Source of the DNA: a virus
Taxonomy: Duplodnaviria > Heunggongvirae > Uroviricota > Caudoviricetes
Direction: 5' to 3' (one strand)
DNA length: 42,876 bases
Virus record (IMG/VR): IMGVR_UViG_2541047698_000015
Part shown: positions 15,161-20,840 of the stretch, piece by piece
How the letters are laid out: every line of letters begins with the position of its first letter
Numbering within the stretch: the first letter of the stretch is position 1
Notes under the pieces: generated by a model
What the model was told of the DNA's origin: nothing
The model's input: only the letters and a program-made list of their open reading frames with translations
The model's database searches: none
Made by a program: the position numbers and the translations under genes

Positions 15161-15363
15161 AACCTCACTCCCAGCGGACGACGGCGACGGCGGGTTGTCC
15201 CCAGTACCGACTCCGCATCATTGATCGCCCGGTTAAGCTCATCCAGAGAAGCTGCCGTATATTCAATTCTGCGACCATCTTTCTGGACAGACACCACCCG
15301 TTTACCGGTTAATAAATCAAGGCGCGCCTGACGCAGCGCCTGCAGTTCAGCGACTGTAACCAT
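15157..15363 (-). CDS. W: head-tail joining protein W
   Basis: 68 aa, ...LLTGKRVVSVQKDGRRIEYTAASL..., matches lambda gpW. Confidence 0.9.
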   Translation of the reverse strand: MVTVAELQALRQARLDLLTGKRVVSVQKDGRRIEYTAASLDELNRAINDAESVLGTTRRRRRPLGVRL

Positions 15364-17275
15364 TCACTCCTCCGGACAGCTTCGCTGCCAGTTCTTTAAG
15401 GGTTGGCCGGGTCGTCTCTTCTTCCCGGGATTTTGCCAGTACAGCCAGATCAAGCTGCCAGCGTTGCACGGACACACGTAATGCCGCGTAGGCATACACC
15501 AGGCAGTCCAGCGCTTCGTTACGCCGCTTTTTGTTATCCCACAGCAGACGCATCTTTCCTTTTTCCCACTTCTCCACAAGCTCTTCCGCCACCAGTTGCT
15601 GCGCCTCTGTCTGCGAAAAAATCTCCGGATCATCAGGAAAACGGATGGCATACGACGTGGCTTCATCCGCAGGCGTGGGATCGGCTTTCATACGGGCATA
15701 GAGAATTTCTTTTGCGGTGTCCGTCCCCACTTCACACAGATAAACGCCCCGCTGATTGCGGGTTTTTGGCATGGTGATCACCGGCTTGCCATAAACAGAT
15801 GCACCTTTTACCGGCAGCACCCGGAAAACACCGTGTTTTTTTGACCTCTGATAGACAATTTCGCCATCGATCCCCCCGGTGTCCCAGCAGACACGGGAAA
15901 TGGTCATTTCGGTGCCATCTGCATGGCAGTATTTTTTGTTGATCGCCGCATCCACACGTAACAGCGTCTCTTCCTCATCAGGACGCCCCATAATGATGAT
16001 TTTATCCACCAGAAAAGCTTCCTCTCCCGGTGCCCATCCCCAGACATACATCTCAAAACGGTTTCGCTGCGAGTCAATGCCCGCCGTCAGATAAACCACC
16101 CGGGCAGGCACCGCCGCCGTGTAATGCACGACCTTATCCATCAGTACCTGGTGATCGAGTTTTTCGCCCACGGCCTCTTCCCAGGTCTCGCCCAGCGTGG
16201 TGTTCACAAAGGTTTTCAGGCCGTTGGGATCTTTCAGTGCATCCAGCCAGTCATAGACAATCTGTACCCAGGTGGTGAACGGACTGTACGCTGTCCAGAT
16301 ATGGAACGTGATGGAGCGCGGCGGCGGAATTTCATTATCCGCGGCGCTGAAAAACGTCAGACCGTCACGGGTCCACATCCCCGTGTTTTCACAGATCCAC
16401 CGCCCGTTGCTCTGGTCAAGCTCAGACTGATGGATCACGCAGCCATGATGTTCACAGAGGTAGAAAACGCTTTCGGGGCTGTCCTTCTCCCATTTAAGGC
16501 CAAAAGGCGTGGATTCATCGCCAAATTTCAGATACTGCTCCTCCCCACAGTGTGGGCAGGGCACATAAAAACGCATGAAATGCGCCGACTCGTTGGCCGC
16601 TTTTTCGATCTGGCAGGTGCCTTTGATTTTAGGCGTCGAGCCGCGAATGGATTTGGGCCATACAGAGCCCTCAATACGTTTATCCCCAAGCAGGGTTGGC
16701 GAACCCTCTTTTTCGACATCCGGTTCGAACGAGGAAAGTTCGTCATAGCAGACCACGTCCACGGATTTTTCACGGTAGTTTTTGGCGGCAGCGCCGCCCA
16801 GGCACCAGAAGCCCACACCCGATGAAAAGCGTTTCAGCGTGAGAGTATTGTCACGATGTTTACGCCCCAGCCATGGAGAAAGGTCTTTCAGACATGGCAC
16901 ATCCCGAATCGTCGCCTCCACGTGAGACTTCATAAAATCTTCAGCGGCAGAATCCGTGGGCTGAAAAAGCAGACTGTTTCGGGATTTATGCTCAATAAAA
17001 TACCCGACGACTCCCAGCAACATCTTTGTATAGCCAACACGGGCAGATTTAATCAGATTAACAGTCCGGATCTGATCATTCCCCATGCTGTTCATGATGG
17101 CGATCTGGAACGGCAGCGTTTTCCATTCTCCCTCACCATATGAAGATTCTTTAGGCAGATAATAATTTTGATCAGCCCATTCAACTGGCGTCACCGGCAA
17201 TGCCCTTATCAGGGGCTGTAATGCTGTTGTGACAGCACTCATCATATTATTCAGTTGTTGCTCTGATATATTCAT
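15347..17275 (-). CDS. A: terminase large subunit A
   Basis: Start moved to internal MNISEQQLNN; very strong match to lambda gpA throughout (e.g. KSARVGYTKMLLGVVGYFIEHK, CPHCGEEQYLKFGD). Confidence 0.95.
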   Translation of the reverse strand: MNISEQQLNNMMSAVTTALQPLIRALPVTPVEWADQNYYLPKESSYGEGEWKTLPFQIAIMNSMGNDQIRTVNLIKSARVGYTKMLLGVVGYFIEHKSRNSLLFQPTDSAAEDFMKSHVEATIRDVPCLKDLSPWLGRKHRDNTLTLKRFSSGVGFWCLGGAAAKNYREKSVDVVCYDELSSFEPDVEKEGSPTLLGDKRIEGSVWPKSIRGSTPKIKGTCQIEKAANESAHFMRFYVPCPHCGEEQYLKFGDESTPFGLKWEKDSPESVFYLCEHHGCVIHQSELDQSNGRWICENTGMWTRDGLTFFSAADNEIPPPRSITFHIWTAYSPFTTWVQIVYDWLDALKDPNGLKTFVNTTLGETWEEAVGEKLDHQVLMDKVVHYTAAVPARVVYLTAGIDSQRNRFEMYVWGWAPGEEAFLVDKIIIMGRPDEEETLLRVDAAINKKYCHADGTEMTISRVCWDTGGIDGEIVYQRSKKHGVFRVLPVKGASVYGKPVITMPKTRNQRGVYLCEVGTDTAKEILYARMKADPTPADEATSYAIRFPDDPEIFSQTEAQQLVAEELVEKWEKGKMRLLWDNKKRRNEALDCLVYAYAALRVSVQRWQLDLAVLAKSREEETTRPTLKELAAKLSGGVNGYSR

Positions 17276-17756
17276 CGAGTAAATCCGGTAATTTATCCCC
17301 CGCCCGCGCACACTGATTTGCCCCCTTCGCAATAAGGGTTTTCAGATGGTCAAGATGGCGCGGTGTTAAATCAGGAAACTGTCGCTGCATGGATAAAGGG
17401 ATGGAATCAAGCGTACTGGATAACGCCATTGCCAGCTTGCTGAGAGCAAAAATACAGAACCCGGTATCAATAAGTTTTCCTTTTGACACCTCATTTTTTA
17501 ACTGCTGTGTAACAGCCTGTTCTGCTGTCAGTTCCCATCTGGCAATAAGCAATTTCTCCTCATAGTCGTCTTCGCTATCGCCATCAGGCACATCGTTTTT
17601 ACTTCTTCTCAGATACGATATGTAAAAATCGCGCCAGGCATCCAGATCCAGTTGCCCTCGCTTATTCGATATCGGGGCACCCGGCAATTTCTGCAATCTG
17701 CGAAGCTGGCGATCGGTCAGACTTAAATGCCTGGCAACTTCAGTCTGCGTAGCCAC
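17247..17756 (-). CDS. nu1: terminase small subunit Nu1 (GTG start)
   Basis: 169 aa; C-terminal half TGFCIFALSKLAMALSSTLDSIPLSMQRQFPDLTPRHLDHLK... matches lambda Nu1; N-terminal HTH-like region. Confidence 0.9.
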   Translation of the reverse strand: MATQTEVARHLSLTDRQLRRLQKLPGAPISNKRGQLDLDAWRDFYISYLRRSKNDVPDGDSEDDYEEKLLIARWELTAEQAVTQQLKNEVSKGKLIDTGFCIFALSKLAMALSSTLDSIPLSMQRQFPDLTPRHLDHLKTLIAKGANQCARAGDKLPDLLDEYIRATTE

Positions 17757-17939
17757 TCCTCACCTCGCAAAAACTCTCACTTCACAATCACAACAAAACC
17801 GGTCATGTCCGGCTTACATGTCTATTTTTTGTGCATGTCCGGTTCACAGAAGACCTCTTTTTTTATTTTTCATATAGTTAACTTGAAGAGAAACCGGACA
17901 TGGTTCCCGGAAAATTTTCATAAATAGCGAAAACCCGCG

Positions 17940-17951
17940 AGGTCGCCGCCC
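17940..17951 (-). other. cos: cosN, 12-nt cohesive-end sequence GGGCGGCGACCT
   Basis: Plus strand aggtcgccgccc is the reverse complement of the lambda cohesive end; flanks resemble lambda cos, ~185 nt upstream of Nu1. Confidence 0.75.
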
Positions 17952-18099
17952 CGTAACCTGTTGGATCGACGGAAAGGACCCGAAAACGAGAATGATTATC
18001 ACTTACAGCAAGAATCGAATCTGATCTATTATGGTGCTTGCTATTATGTGCCGGCACAAGTGCGTCGTTTACCGTCATTTCACACAGAGGCATCATCAA

Positions 18100-18351
18100 A
18101 TGAAAATCAGAAATATTCTCGCTATCTCCCTTGCAACATCATCCTTCAGTTGCCTGGCATTTAAATCCTCGCCCAATGTGCTACCAGGACCAACGAATCA
18201 ACTAACTGCGGTAGAAAGTAAAATTATCGGACATTTTTATGCCCCACACAGTGCATTACCCGGAACAACCATCACAGGGACATGTGACGCCTCCCCCGTC
18301 CCGGGATGCACCTGTCCGTTTTGTACTATGCTGCGTAGCCAAAACCGATAA
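18100..18351 (+). CDS. small secreted protein: Sec-type signal peptide (MKIRNILAISLATSSFSCLA) plus ~63-aa mature part with a C-terminal 4-Cys cluster
   Basis: Internal ATG of track ORF 18031..18351; AT-rich island on the strand opposite all flanking genes; no family recognised. Confidence 0.4.
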   Translation: MKIRNILAISLATSSFSCLAFKSSPNVLPGPTNQLTAVESKIIGHFYAPHSALPGTTITGTCDASPVPGCTCPFCTMLRSQNR

Positions 18352-18412
18352 CATCCGCATTTACCTGGTATTACATGATGAGTTCACGCAGCGACTGATA
18401 GAGGAAGGAAAG

Positions 18413-18592
18413 ATGGTTAGTAAAAGCAAGGCGCATTGCCGCCGCATGCTGCAGGCATTGCAACAGACGAGAGCAGGTATTTTTGACCAGTTGGAAAACT
18501 GCCAGCATACTTTGCCCGAGTATATCGCCATCTCATCGGAAACCAGTGCAACTCTTATTCATCGGGTTCCACCAGAGAAAAAGAAGAAATGA
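18413..18592 (+). CDS. small hypothetical protein (59 aa, basic C-terminus KKKK)
   Basis: Internal ATG of track ORF 18239..18592 with strong SD (AGGAAGGAAAG); 60 nt downstream of the secreted-peptide ORF; hairpin follows. Confidence 0.35.
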   Translation: MVSKSKAHCRRMLQALQQTRAGIFDQLENCQHTLPEYIAISSETSATLIHRVPPEKKKK

Positions 18593-18602
18593 ACAGTGAG
18601 GC

Positions 18603-18632
18603 GTTGTGTGGCATACAACGCCTTCTTCCATC
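18603..18632. terminator. hairpin ggcgttgt-gtggcata-acaacgcc between convergent gene sets
   Basis: 8-bp perfect inverted repeat followed by ttcttcc on plus. Confidence 0.35.
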
Positions 18633-18714
18633 ATTCCTCGTCAGCCATGACAAAAATATAACCGCTGGCTCTTTCATTTTTCTCCTGCGTCCAGCCCCTC
18701 TCTACCTGGAAGCA

Positions 18715-19041
18715 TCAGGGACGTGACGGCGTAAAGATAAATTGTCTCTTCACTCCCTGACAGGGGCGATTCTTTTCAAATCGCCATTTCGCCATGGCCT
18801 TCACCACTTCATCACGAAACAAATTATGAGGCTCTGAGCGGAGAAAAACGATCCGTGTCACAGTCCCATCAGCACCAATATCGAACTTAACCTCAACCAG
18901 CCCCTTGATATAATTTGCTGCAGCATATTCCGGATATCGTGGATACACCGTCACTAATTGCCGGGGCTCATCAGCTTTTTGCTGCGAGCATCCCACTGCC
19001 AGGACAGATAACAGAAAAAGTAGTAAAAGGCGTCTTTTCAT
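18715..19041 (-). CDS. lipoprotein with TonB C-terminal-like domain (moron in the bor position)
   Basis: Start moved to MKRRLLLLFLLSVLAVGCSQQ (lipobox LAVGC); body YPRYPEYAAANYIKGLVEVKFDIGADGTVTRIVFLRSEPHNLFRDEVVKAMAKWRF fits the TonB_C pattern. Confidence 0.6.
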   Translation of the reverse strand: MKRRLLLLFLLSVLAVGCSQQKADEPRQLVTVYPRYPEYAAANYIKGLVEVKFDIGADGTVTRIVFLRSEPHNLFRDEVVKAMAKWRFEKNRPCQGVKRQFIFTPSRP

Positions 19042-19351
19042 TTTTATTCCTACGGGTCTTATTCTGACAATATATCCTGTGTTCCAGACTGCCACATCAC
19101 CACATCCTGTGCCATTATCTGACTCACATTACATACATCGCATCGGGATACAGTAGTAGCACTTTCTGTAATACAGCTTCCTGTTTCTTCCACCATCGCA
19201 CCGGGATAAACCCGCGAATCATTAACGCGGTAAAAACCCGGTGTGCATCGTTTTTAATTATCCCCGCACACTCGCGCAGAGGAGTCTCCCTGTCGGGCTG
19301 CGGTCTCTGTTAATGAGGGAATATAGCGACGATACGGCGCATCAACAAAAC

Positions 19352-19825
19352 TTATTTCAGGCACTGAGTGCGGATATAGTCCTGTGCCCCTTCCAGTTGC
19401 TTGTGCATCGTCATCAGCCGCTCTCTGAGGGTGAAATAATCCCGTGTAACGGTGTCTGCCAGTTGGGGGCCGGTTGCATTATCCACGCCGGAGGTGGTGG
19501 GGGCTTCACGCACGGAGCCTGGACAGGTGGCGTTGATCCGCAGGCGCTTACGACCAGCGGCAACGTCAGCGCGAAGAGTTTCATTTTCAGCTCTCGCATC
19601 GGCTAATTCCCTCGAGTATTTTGCATCGAGCGCAGCAACATCGCGCTGGCGCACCTGCATATCAGTAATGGTTGCGTTCGCCAGCTTCAGTTCACTGGCT
19701 TTGTTATCGCGCTGCGCTTTGTAGGTAATCGCGTTATCACGGTAATGGTCTGTTGCCATCCACAGCGCACCACAGGCCACCAGCAGAATAACGATAAACG
19801 CGGAAAGCATTCGGTTTATGTTCAC
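19352..19825 (-). CDS. Rz: i-spanin Rz
   Basis: 157 aa, N-terminal TM then coiled-coil ([31 protein letters not shown]...), downstream of endolysin. Confidence 0.9.
19414..19599 (-). CDS. Rz1: o-spanin Rz1, embedded in Rz in the +1 frame
   Basis: 61 aa, lipobox LVVSAC then Pro-rich [21 protein letters not shown], as in lambda Rz1. Confidence 0.8.
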
Positions 19826-19953
19826 CCCAGCAACCCCGACGAAGACAACATCATCCAGGCCATGGAAAGAAAAAGAGCAACCAGCATTAGTGAAAATGAA
19901 ATGCCGACAATTACACAGAGGATCTTCGCCAGCGTTATGAGTTTGTCTGACAT
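19822..19953 (-). CDS. small membrane protein (43 aa, one TM), stop overlaps Rz start
   Basis: [43 protein letters not shown]; strong SD AAGGGAGGA 7 nt upstream; internal start of track ORF 19822..20043. Confidence 0.4.
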
Positions 19954-19967
19954 GCTTAATCCTCCCT

Positions 19968-20150
19968 TCACGATTTCAACGCAATGACCAGTTTTGCCAG
20001 CCCATACAGCATCGGGGACACAGCAACACCGACCGCCACCCACTTAATGGCAAAAGCCAGTGCTCTGCTGATGTCATCAGTTACAGGCGCTTTCAGTTCA
20101 AGGCCATTTTTCATAGTCAACCTCAACAGAATTCGTTTACACTTCGCCAT
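19968..20150 (-). CDS. small membrane protein (60 aa, C-terminal TM)
   Basis: [60 protein letters not shown]; SD AAGGGAGAA; internal start of track ORF 19968..20183. Confidence 0.4.
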
Positions 20151-20306: not shown

Positions 20307-20840
20307 TTATCTGTCGATACCCCAGCACGCCAGCGCGCTCTCCTGGTCACGACGGGATACCTGACCGTAACAGTTGTTTGAACGAATACGGCAGTCTCTG
20401 CCACCGTCCTTAATCCACCAGCGAATCGCTTCGCAGGCACCTTTTCGATCACCAGCATTAATTCGTCTGTAAAACGTCGACGGGAAACACTTACCGGGAC
20501 CAATGTTGTACGGACAGAATGACGCGATCCCCGCTTTCTGGGGTTCGGTCAGCGGCACTCTGATGTTTTTCTCCACCCACGCCAGCGCTTTATCACGCTC
20601 AATGGCGTTAACCTGGTCGCATTTTTCCTTCGACAACTTCATGCCCGGAACGACAGGTTTGCCATCCACCATGATGGCACCACGGCAGATGGTCCAGATA
20701 CCTGCACCATCACGGTATGCTGTGGTGTGGTTGCCTTCCTTTTCATCCAGAAACTGGTCGAGAATGTCAGGCGCAGGCGCACCAGCGGCAATCAGCGCCA
20801 GAACGGCAGCCGACAGGCCGTATTTGATTTTGGTGTTCAT
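20307..20840 (-). CDS. R: SAR-type endolysin (lysozyme R)
   Basis: 177 aa with hydrophobic N-terminal signal-anchor-release segment (MNTKIKYGLSAAVLALIAAGAPAP), resembling P21/RrrD-type endolysins. Confidence 0.9.
   Translation of the reverse strand: MNTKIKYGLSAAVLALIAAGAPAPDILDQFLDEKEGNHTTAYRDGAGIWTICRGAIMVDGKPVVPGMKLSKEKCDQVNAIERDKALAWVEKNIRVPLTEPQKAGIASFCPYNIGPGKCFPSTFYRRINAGDRKGACEAIRWWIKDGGRDCRIRSNNCYGQVSRRDQESALACWGIDR

Follow-up and report, generated by a model that had tools for sequence, protein, structure and literature searches.

What is a small island of plus-strand DNA doing next to the cos site of a prophage whose late genes run on the minus strand? The question was raised by IMG/VR record IMGVR_UViG_2541047698_000015, a stretch of 42,876 nucleotides (nt) that is a phage-21-like (Jouyvirus) Escherichia coli prophage; the whole stretch is called the window here. 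From the letters of this DNA, an original prediction had placed a two-gene unit at 17960-18640, an exported cysteine peptide followed by a small basic protein, and had tentatively likened it to secreted-toxin or bacteriocin-like loci with a partner gene. We arrived at another reading, to which we give a probability of about 0.6: the first open reading frame (ORF-A) is a lone moron gene encoding a periplasmic mini-protein with four cysteines (Cys4) that belongs to the zinc-starvation response, and the second (ORF-B) is not a gene. The first of them is as follows.

18100-18351, plus strand: ORF-A, a precursor of 83 amino acids (aa), MKIRNILAISLATSSFSCLA/FKSS...TGTCDASPVPGCTCPFCTMLRSQNR, with the slash at the predicted cleavage site

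The 83-aa precursor with a Sec-type signal peptide and a C-terminal four-cysteine cluster was found as predicted, and its reading frame was intact in 79 of 79 E. coli and phage copies. A large protein collection held 22 homologues of 55-99% identity, nearly all of 83-84 aa, in E. coli, Salmonella, Citrobacter and Klebsiella, to which a genome scan added those of Buttiauxella. In codon alignments (Klebsiella, Salmonella, Citrobacter, Buttiauxella), the proportion of synonymous differences (pS) reached saturation at 0.65-0.89 whereas that of non-synonymous differences (pN) was 0.2-0.3, and the ratio of the non-synonymous to the synonymous rate (dN/dS) was about 0.1-0.25 where dS was estimable. 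ORF-A is a real gene under purifying selection, and its length is conserved. Furthermore, when 1.84 billion cluster representatives were searched with a profile, 30 of them proved to belong to the family, most of them of 79-85 aa and several longer (truncated or fused calls, and three repeat proteins). Residues A20, F21, C62, G69, C70, C72 and C75 were invariant across this wider set. Judged from these comparisons, ORF-A founds an uncharacterised family of about 80-85 aa across Enterobacterales.

The predicted signal peptide covers residues 1-20, with an MKIR n-region, a hydrophobic core and cleavage at C-L-A/F, and the predicted mature protein has 63 aa, about 6.6 kDa and a pI of 8.5. Its C-terminal cysteine cluster is C-x7-C-x-C-x2-C (C62, C70, C72, C75; TGTCDASPVPGCTCPFC), within the motif G-x-C-x7-C-x-C-x2-C-x2-L-R. 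Position -3 of the cleavage site is Cys18 in the clade of the window, whereas distant members mostly have Ala or another small residue (Val, Ser) and are predicted to be cut at ALA/FQ (ALA/FQAK), AMA/FQ or AAA/FQ. C18 is thus best taken as the -3 residue of a signal peptidase I site, because distant members replace it by Ala or a small residue while A20/F21 is invariant. We also considered a lipoprotein with S-F-S-C18 as lipobox and rejected it, since C18 is not conserved and distant members have A-x-A/F. A longer, 106-aa ORF-A starting at ATG 18031 was likewise rejected: the extension is not conserved in L023-type prophages or other homologues, and the family starts with MK[IV]. As a separate observation, a version of the C-terminal motif, P-[IL]-P-G-C-N-C-P-K-C-T-x-L-R, recurs four to five times within proteins rich in Asn and about 600 aa long (P0045, P0047), which have an apparent ubiquitin-like N-terminal domain and are seemingly eukaryotic.

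No match to ORF-A was found in Pfam or NCBIfam (E<=1), PHROG or PADLOC (E<=0.1), nor in PDB by profile or sequence search at E<=10. Two AlphaFold runs gave mean confidences (pLDDT, predicted local distance difference test) of 46.6 and 61.2, with low-confidence helices at 34-47 and 73-81, and a Foldseek search of PDB with the better, still weak, model returned 0 matches. The gene is absent from the phage 21 reference annotation and from the RefSeq records inspected, all source names of its homologues are 'hypothetical protein', and our literature searches found no description of the family. The supplements of a translatome paper on enterohaemorrhagic E. coli contained neither an ORF-A nor an ORF-B peptide.

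Is ORF-A half of a two-gene unit? The comparison with other phages indicated that it is not. In PhiR12_1 and an Stx1 phage, which do not have the island, similarity to the window stops at 18011-18016 and starts again at 19179. An L023-type prophage carries an ORF-A that is 72% identical at the protein level and has 17232-18347 in common with the window at 82.6% DNA identity, but after 18347 a DUF3950 gene replaces the ORF-B region and the TonB_C gene, and the match again resumes at 19179. The joints at 18016/18017 and 18347/18348 are thus set by phages without the island or with another in its place, and they divide it into two modules: the ORF-A moron at 18017-18347 (ORF-A itself ends at 18351) and the ORF-B region with TonB_C at 18348-19178. 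The supposed two-gene unit therefore falls apart, as the second joint separates the two ORFs and ORF-A occurs in many genomes without ORF-B. ORF-A is a single-gene moron, a discrete insertion between conserved flanks, in the moron hotspot between lysis genes and cos, and is oriented against the late operon. In the L023-type prophages (L023-L025, 6644-6835), the 63-aa DUF3950 protein (phrog_949) follows ORF-A on the same strand, and its sequence looks like that of a ribbon-helix-helix DNA-binding protein. ORF-B is not a diverged version of it: BLASTP against the L023 protein of the same slot found nothing, and ORF-B had no Pfam or NCBIfam match.

The setting resembles that of the lambda Bor and Iss lysogenic-conversion morons, which also lie between Rz and cos, run against the late operon and encode an exported envelope protein of small size; in sister prophages, iss/bor is present at a distance of a few hundred bases, and a Salmonella homologue of ORF-A adjoins bor. 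However, Bor and ORF-A have no sequence relationship (no match to Pfam Lambda_Bor), and Bor is a lipoprotein whereas ORF-A carries a site for signal peptidase I and lacks a conserved lipobox cysteine.

The link to zinc comes from the chromosomal relatives. A 23-bp gamma-proteobacterial Zur box, GAAATGTTATA-N-TATAACATTTC, has been described, and E. coli PliG was shown by experiment to be a member of the Zur regulon with its operator 34 nt upstream (PMC4219657). From this box we took the core TGTTAT-N3-ATAACA, with 12 specified bases, and counted matches of at least 10/12. About ten lineages, chromosomal or prophage, had cores of 10-12/12 at 35-180 nt before the unit, among them the following.

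Buttiauxella noackiae, 12/12; B. warmboldiae, 10/12
Citrobacter koseri, 11/12; Citrobacter sp., 10/12
Enterobacter/Klebsiella azt island, 11/12; its metagenomic relatives, 12/12
Serratia plymuthica, 10/12
Two further metagenomic lineages, 12/12, one of them with a second site of 11/12
Four Salmonella subspecies, 12/12, upstream of pliG-ORF-A and about 36 nt before pliG

These sites were often the sole matches in loci of 8-12 kb. Across 167 kb of non-redundant loci there were 19 matches of at least 10/12, about half of which were the sites upstream of ORF-A. Chance cannot explain the association, because only about 0.007 matches are expected per 120-nt upstream window. In the Enterobacter/Klebsiella island (L029), the only other core match in 12 kb lies before the genes of an AztD-AztCBA zinc importer; the AztD neighbour scored 457 bits (cut-off 400) and stands with a ZnuA-family ATP-binding cassette importer. 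In the four Salmonella subspecies, pliG (E = 1.7e-57 to PDB 4dy3) ends 95 nt before ORF-A with no predicted terminator between. Otherwise the neighbours of ORF-A differ completely among lineages, in more than ten genomic contexts, which argues that the unit is a single gene. From these sites, the chromosomal homologues are predicted to be controlled by Zur and should be switched on by zinc starvation. The boxes and the zinc-uptake neighbours of the family suggest a place in zinc-starvation physiology more than in the making of a toxin.

Two loci deserve mention on their own. The Zur-box-bearing homologue of Citrobacter koseri (L026, 6001-6300) lies tail-to-tail with icd, which we take to be the attachment gene of phage 21 and e14, and it could be all that is left of a phage-21-like prophage that has decayed. 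In Buttiauxella, one copy that has a perfect Zur box stands beside what by eye is an apparent tape-measure-like ORF. Zur-controlled copies borne by phages thus seem to exist.

Is the copy in the window itself under Zur? Upstream of ORF-A we recognised the following elements.

18017-18099, plus strand: 5' flank of the ORF-A moron, putative promoter region
18039-18047, plus strand: possible extended -10, TGcTATTAT, identified by eye
18048-18059: perfect 12-nt palindrome TGTGCCGGCACA, at the Zur-box position of the chromosomal homologues
18086-18090, plus strand: Shine-Dalgarno sequence AGAGG

A consensus scan of the window returned no convincing sigma-70 promoter or intrinsic terminator. Near 18100 no core match of at least 10/12 was present; the site scored 7/12 on the core by eye and at best 14/20 on the Gilston pattern. 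When aligned with the chromosomal promoters, the window reads [A]TTATGTGCCGGCACAAG where the others have GTTATGTTATTACATAAC: the left half-site is kept and the right half is replaced by the TGTGCCGGCACA palindrome. This palindrome could be the operator for another regulator, and by this alignment the phage-21 lineage appears to have lost Zur control. The L023-type prophage has a palindrome of its own at the Zur position, GGTTACGTGTTAACGTAACA, which scored 17/20 on the structure-based pattern.

Mobile copies also occur on plasmids, and on mobile elements in general the gene tends to lack the Zur box. A 64%-identical ORF-A is carried by about 64 Klebsiella plasmids (L003 / L143, e.g. pINF237_01-VP), mostly conjugative and one of them a virulence plasmid. 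The decayed cosN/cosQ directly upstream of this copy indicates that it was captured from a phage. The distant plasmid copies show, by eye, a promoter-like sequence TTGCAT...TATAAT and, directly behind the stop codon, a hairpin. On the same Klebsiella plasmids, a ZigA-like COG0523 GTPase and a Fur-family repressor are encoded about 1-2 kb away.

How might such a protein work? The precursor would be exported by Sec and cleaved by signal peptidase I after C-L-A, giving a 63-aa periplasmic mini-protein with one predicted amphipathic helix. Its four cysteines, possibly with the nearby His50, might bind zinc or might lock the chain into a disulfide knot. Under zinc limitation the protein would capture zinc or hand it over, or would adapt the envelope alongside ZnuA/ZinT/AztD and PliG. 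With the operator decayed in the phage-21-type copy, a lysogen would make the protein under different, perhaps constitutive, control, and from the deregulated copy the host would gain additional amounts of a zinc-starvation factor. That ORF-A acts through its cysteine cluster in periplasmic zinc handling, or in the adaptation of the envelope to zinc starvation, is a tentative proposal, held at somewhat less than even odds.

ZinT, ZnuA, PliG and AztD share with the ORF-A homologues their export and the placement of the Zur box, and homologues adjoin pliG or aztDCBA. However, there is no homology to any of them, ORF-A is far smaller (63 aa when mature), and its conserved residues are Cys rather than His; Zur regulation of the ORF-A family is a prediction, and the window copy has lost the box. 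Metallothionein-like and zinc-knuckle motifs are a possible lead, as they resemble ORF-A in the C-x-C-x-x-C spacing followed by the predicted helix 73-81, but ORF-A has four cysteines only, is predicted to be periplasmic, and gave no homology or fold match.

A wider claim would be that ORF-A represents an unrecognised class of Zur-regulated, Sec-exported Cys4 mini-proteins, serving zinc capture or hand-off, or protection of the envelope under zinc starvation, which temperate phages, conjugative plasmids and virulence islands have repeatedly captured and uncoupled from Zur; we consider this rather unlikely in its full form. If it were true, about one fifth of sequenced E. coli, including many human clinical isolates, would carry a deregulated phage-borne zinc-starvation factor, and such a factor would affect fitness under the nutritional immunity of the host. 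The Zur regulon of E. coli is thought to be tiny, comprising znuABC, zinT, ykgMO and pliG. A new and widespread single-gene Zur-box unit with an exported Cys4 mini-protein would extend the zinc-starvation biology of Enterobacterales. The mobile copies are common (1224 of 5426 complete E. coli genomes; about 64 Klebsiella plasmids), which suggests a lysogenic-conversion trait related to zinc limitation imposed by calprotectin.

Several points weigh against the zinc-starvation reading. In a compartment as oxidising as the periplasm, zinc sites made of thiolates are uncommon, and PliG shows that a member of the Zur regulon need not handle zinc. The window copy has no credible Zur box (7/12; 14/20), so that its link to zinc runs through its homologues; the box is also missing from the Klebsiella plasmid types and the Salmonella conjugative-element type, and the promoter of the phage copy is a candidate that the consensus scan did not make convincing. 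Recent constraint on ORF-A within E. coli is weak (4 synonymous and 5 non-synonymous changes), and the poor AlphaFold models (pLDDT 46.6 and 61.2) lend the reading no structural support. Finally, with 9 substitutions only, a young lineage-specific gene at ORF-B keeps a small probability.

The alternative that survives best would make ORF-A a disulfide-knotted periplasmic inhibitor or decoy, which shields the envelope from an enzyme of the host or of a competitor in the manner of PliG, with the Zur link acting as an 'inside a host' signal and no handling of zinc. The Salmonella arrangement, in which ORF-A follows pliG and shares its upstream Zur box, fits this well, and PliG is a precedent, being regulated by Zur without a zinc-handling role (PMC4219657). 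The carriers are often associated with virulence: Salmonella loci with bor, omptin and genes for serine protease autotransporter (SPATE) or novel E3 ligase (NEL) effectors, the Klebsiella virulence plasmid, and the bor/iss position in prophages of extraintestinal pathogenic E. coli. Exported proteins with an even count of cysteines normally have them paired in disulfides, as is generally known of DsbA substrates. However, ORF-A has no similarity to known inhibitor families in Pfam or PDB, no target can be named, most characterised members of the Zur regulon act in zinc uptake or sparing, and one homologue lies within an island for zinc import and zinc sparing. We regard the inhibitor as improbable, though it is the main rival of the zinc-starvation reading.

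Does the DNA downstream of ORF-A encode a protein at all? It contains the following features.

18413-18592, plus strand: ORF-B, 59 aa, basic, pI 9.7, starting 61 nt after ORF-A
18348-18714, either strand: stretch of about 365 nt without demonstrable coding capacity, which travels with the TonB_C gene
18371-18508 (18326-18508 in other copies), minus strand: antisense ORF of public annotations, 45/60 aa
18555-18677, minus strand: antisense ORF of public annotations, 40 aa
18598-18624, plus strand: hairpin, -16.4 kcal/mol, z = -2.76 (on the minus strand -14.4 kcal/mol, z = -1.68)

The basic ORF with a strong Shine-Dalgarno region (GAGGAAGGAAAG / GAGGAAGG) about 60 nt downstream of ORF-A was indeed present, but the claim that it is a gene did not hold. 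ORF-B had only 4 database matches, all E. coli-like, with no homologue outside E. coli, and it was missing beside every non-E. coli homologue of ORF-A. Among the 79 sequences (30 haplotypes), its 9 substitutions were spread 3:3:3 over the codon positions, with 2 synonymous and 7 non-synonymous. Frameshifts occurred at 18427 (+A) and 18578 (-A); the +A variant at 18427 puts the ATG out of frame and leaves a 48-aa ORF from an internal Met (P0024), found on 486 contigs. As a control, the TonB_C gene had 9 synonymous and 4 non-synonymous changes, which is a coding signature. With no such signature, frameshifts in common variants and neutral substitutions, ORF-B is probably not a protein-coding gene but a chance ORF in the non-coding tail of the TonB_C module. 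Of 5426 complete E. coli genomes, 1224 carried the stretch 18348-18714, as did 7 phage records; its identity was never below 95%, and it adjoined the TonB_C gene in 5 of 5 annotated records inspected.

The antisense ORFs did not look coding either. A stop at 18373 interrupts the 60-aa ORF in 24 of the 79 copies, the window included, and this ORF showed 1 synonymous and 7 non-synonymous changes; the 40-aa ORF has one nonsense and one frameshift variant. Both are most likely chance ORFs. They are called both in the phage 21 reference annotation and by the Prokaryotic Genome Annotation Pipeline in RefSeq; on L001 they stand at 375-557 and 604-726. ORF-B matches phrog_4843 over its full length and an antisense ORF on the same DNA matches phrog_3744; since mutually antisense ORFs each have a PHROG, these matches reflect gene calling and not function. 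There is a lesson here for annotation: the curated phage 21 reference and the RefSeq records inspected omit a real gene and call antisense ORFs that look non-coding. An Rfam scan of 17000-20000 found no real match, with only a chance snoRNA-like hit at E = 0.47. The hairpin predicted after ORF-B exists; however, a proper U-tract is missing and the scan for terminators did not report it. The ORF-A transcript may stop at this hairpin, though it is not a canonical intrinsic terminator.

It could still be argued that a genuine, very young small protein specific to E. coli phages is encoded by ORF-B or by an antisense ORF within 18326-18677, in which case 18348-18714 would be coding after all. Most of the 79 copies have these ORFs uninterrupted, gene callers as well as two PHROG families have picked them up, and the sequence before ORF-B makes a strong ribosome-binding site. 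However, substitutions are spread evenly over codon positions and every candidate frame has a non-synonymous excess (2:7, 1:7), frameshift and nonsense alleles are frequent (the 18373 stop in 24/79, the P0024 allele on 486 contigs), variable sites are denser than in the flanking genes (21/363 nt against 9/252 and 13/327), and no homologue exists beyond the copies of at least 95% identity. We consider a young protein here even less probable than the periplasmic inhibitor, and continue to read ORF-B as a non-gene.

The toxin-and-partner idea of the original prediction was the weakest; spelled out, it would make ORF-A a secreted toxin, an enterotoxin-like peptide or a bacteriocin precursor and ORF-B its immunity protein, regulator or chaperone. 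Pfam holds enterotoxin and microcin families. Our search for toxin or bacteriocin families found none in Pfam and NCBIfam (E<=1) or PADLOC (E<=0.1). The partner-locus layout was not borne out either, with ORF-A standing alone in more than ten contexts and ORF-B lying beyond a mosaic joint without a coding signature. A pre-pro arrangement with a Cys-rich C-terminus that is loosely like the heat-stable enterotoxin prepropeptide as generally described, a basic ORF-B with a good Shine-Dalgarno sequence and its full-length PHROG match speak for the idea, but the PHROG match is no evidence for a gene when the antisense ORF has one too, ORF-B is frameshifted in common variants, evolves neutrally and is absent beside all non-E. 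coli homologues, ORF-A has no conserved immunity, modifying-enzyme or exporter neighbour, and Sec export by itself ends in the periplasm, so that the toxin retains a very slight chance and the toxin-plus-partner model is essentially excluded. The heat-stable enterotoxin STa prepropeptide and the class II microcins resemble ORF-A in being short precursors that begin with an export signal and have cysteines in the C-terminal part; however, no Pfam match was obtained at E<=1, the Cys spacing of ORF-A is different, its export signal is of the Sec type and not a double-glycine leader, and neither an exporter nor an immunity gene lies near it.

The surroundings of the island are those of phage 21, with 99.2% identity over 17952-18720, and at least 80% of a 961-nt query over the island was held by 1218 of 5426 complete E. 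coli genomes. The neighbouring features are listed here.

15347-17332, minus strand: large terminase gene
17247-17756, minus strand: small terminase gene
17940-17951: cosN, aggtcgccgccc, the reverse complement of GGGCGGCGACCT
17975-17981: cosQ, mapped from the phage 21 annotation
17940-18016: cos flank with cosN, cosQ and a Fur-box-like sequence, outside the island
18715-19041, minus strand: TonB C-terminal-domain (TonB_C) lipoprotein gene, the late-strand gene of module 18348-19178
19352-19825, minus strand: Rz
20307-20840, minus strand: lysozyme gene

ORF-A and ORF-B do lie on the strand opposite to all neighbours, as had been noted, with the genes of the small terminase, the TonB_C lipoprotein and Rz all on the minus strand. 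The proposed start of the island at 17960, by contrast, falls within the cos flank and outside the island; this flank (17940-18016) is 85-96% identical to that of phages without ORF-A. The description as an AT-rich unit was weakly true: GC content is 46.8% at 17960-18640 against 51.8% for the window, but the adjacent TonB_C gene has 47.1%.

A Fur-box-like sequence lies at 17982-18006, directly after cosQ, in two overlapping registers that each match GATAATGATAATCATTATC at 15/19, and it is the only site of at least 15/19 in the 42.9-kb window. The cos flank of a phage without ORF-A (L111) also has a Fur-like box, of about 16/19 by eye. The box is thus part of the cos region, because a phage without ORF-A carries one as well, and Fur control specific to ORF-A through 17982-18006 was rejected.

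The TonB_C lipoprotein matched Pfam TonB_C at 7e-13 and a solved TonB C-terminal domain at 1e-14. Its gene and the 365-nt ORF-B stretch are always found together, as module 18348-19178. In PHROGs the family of this lipoprotein bears the label 'Rz-like spanin', apparently a misnomer; speculatively, the protein might be a decoy or blocker of TonB-dependent receptors.

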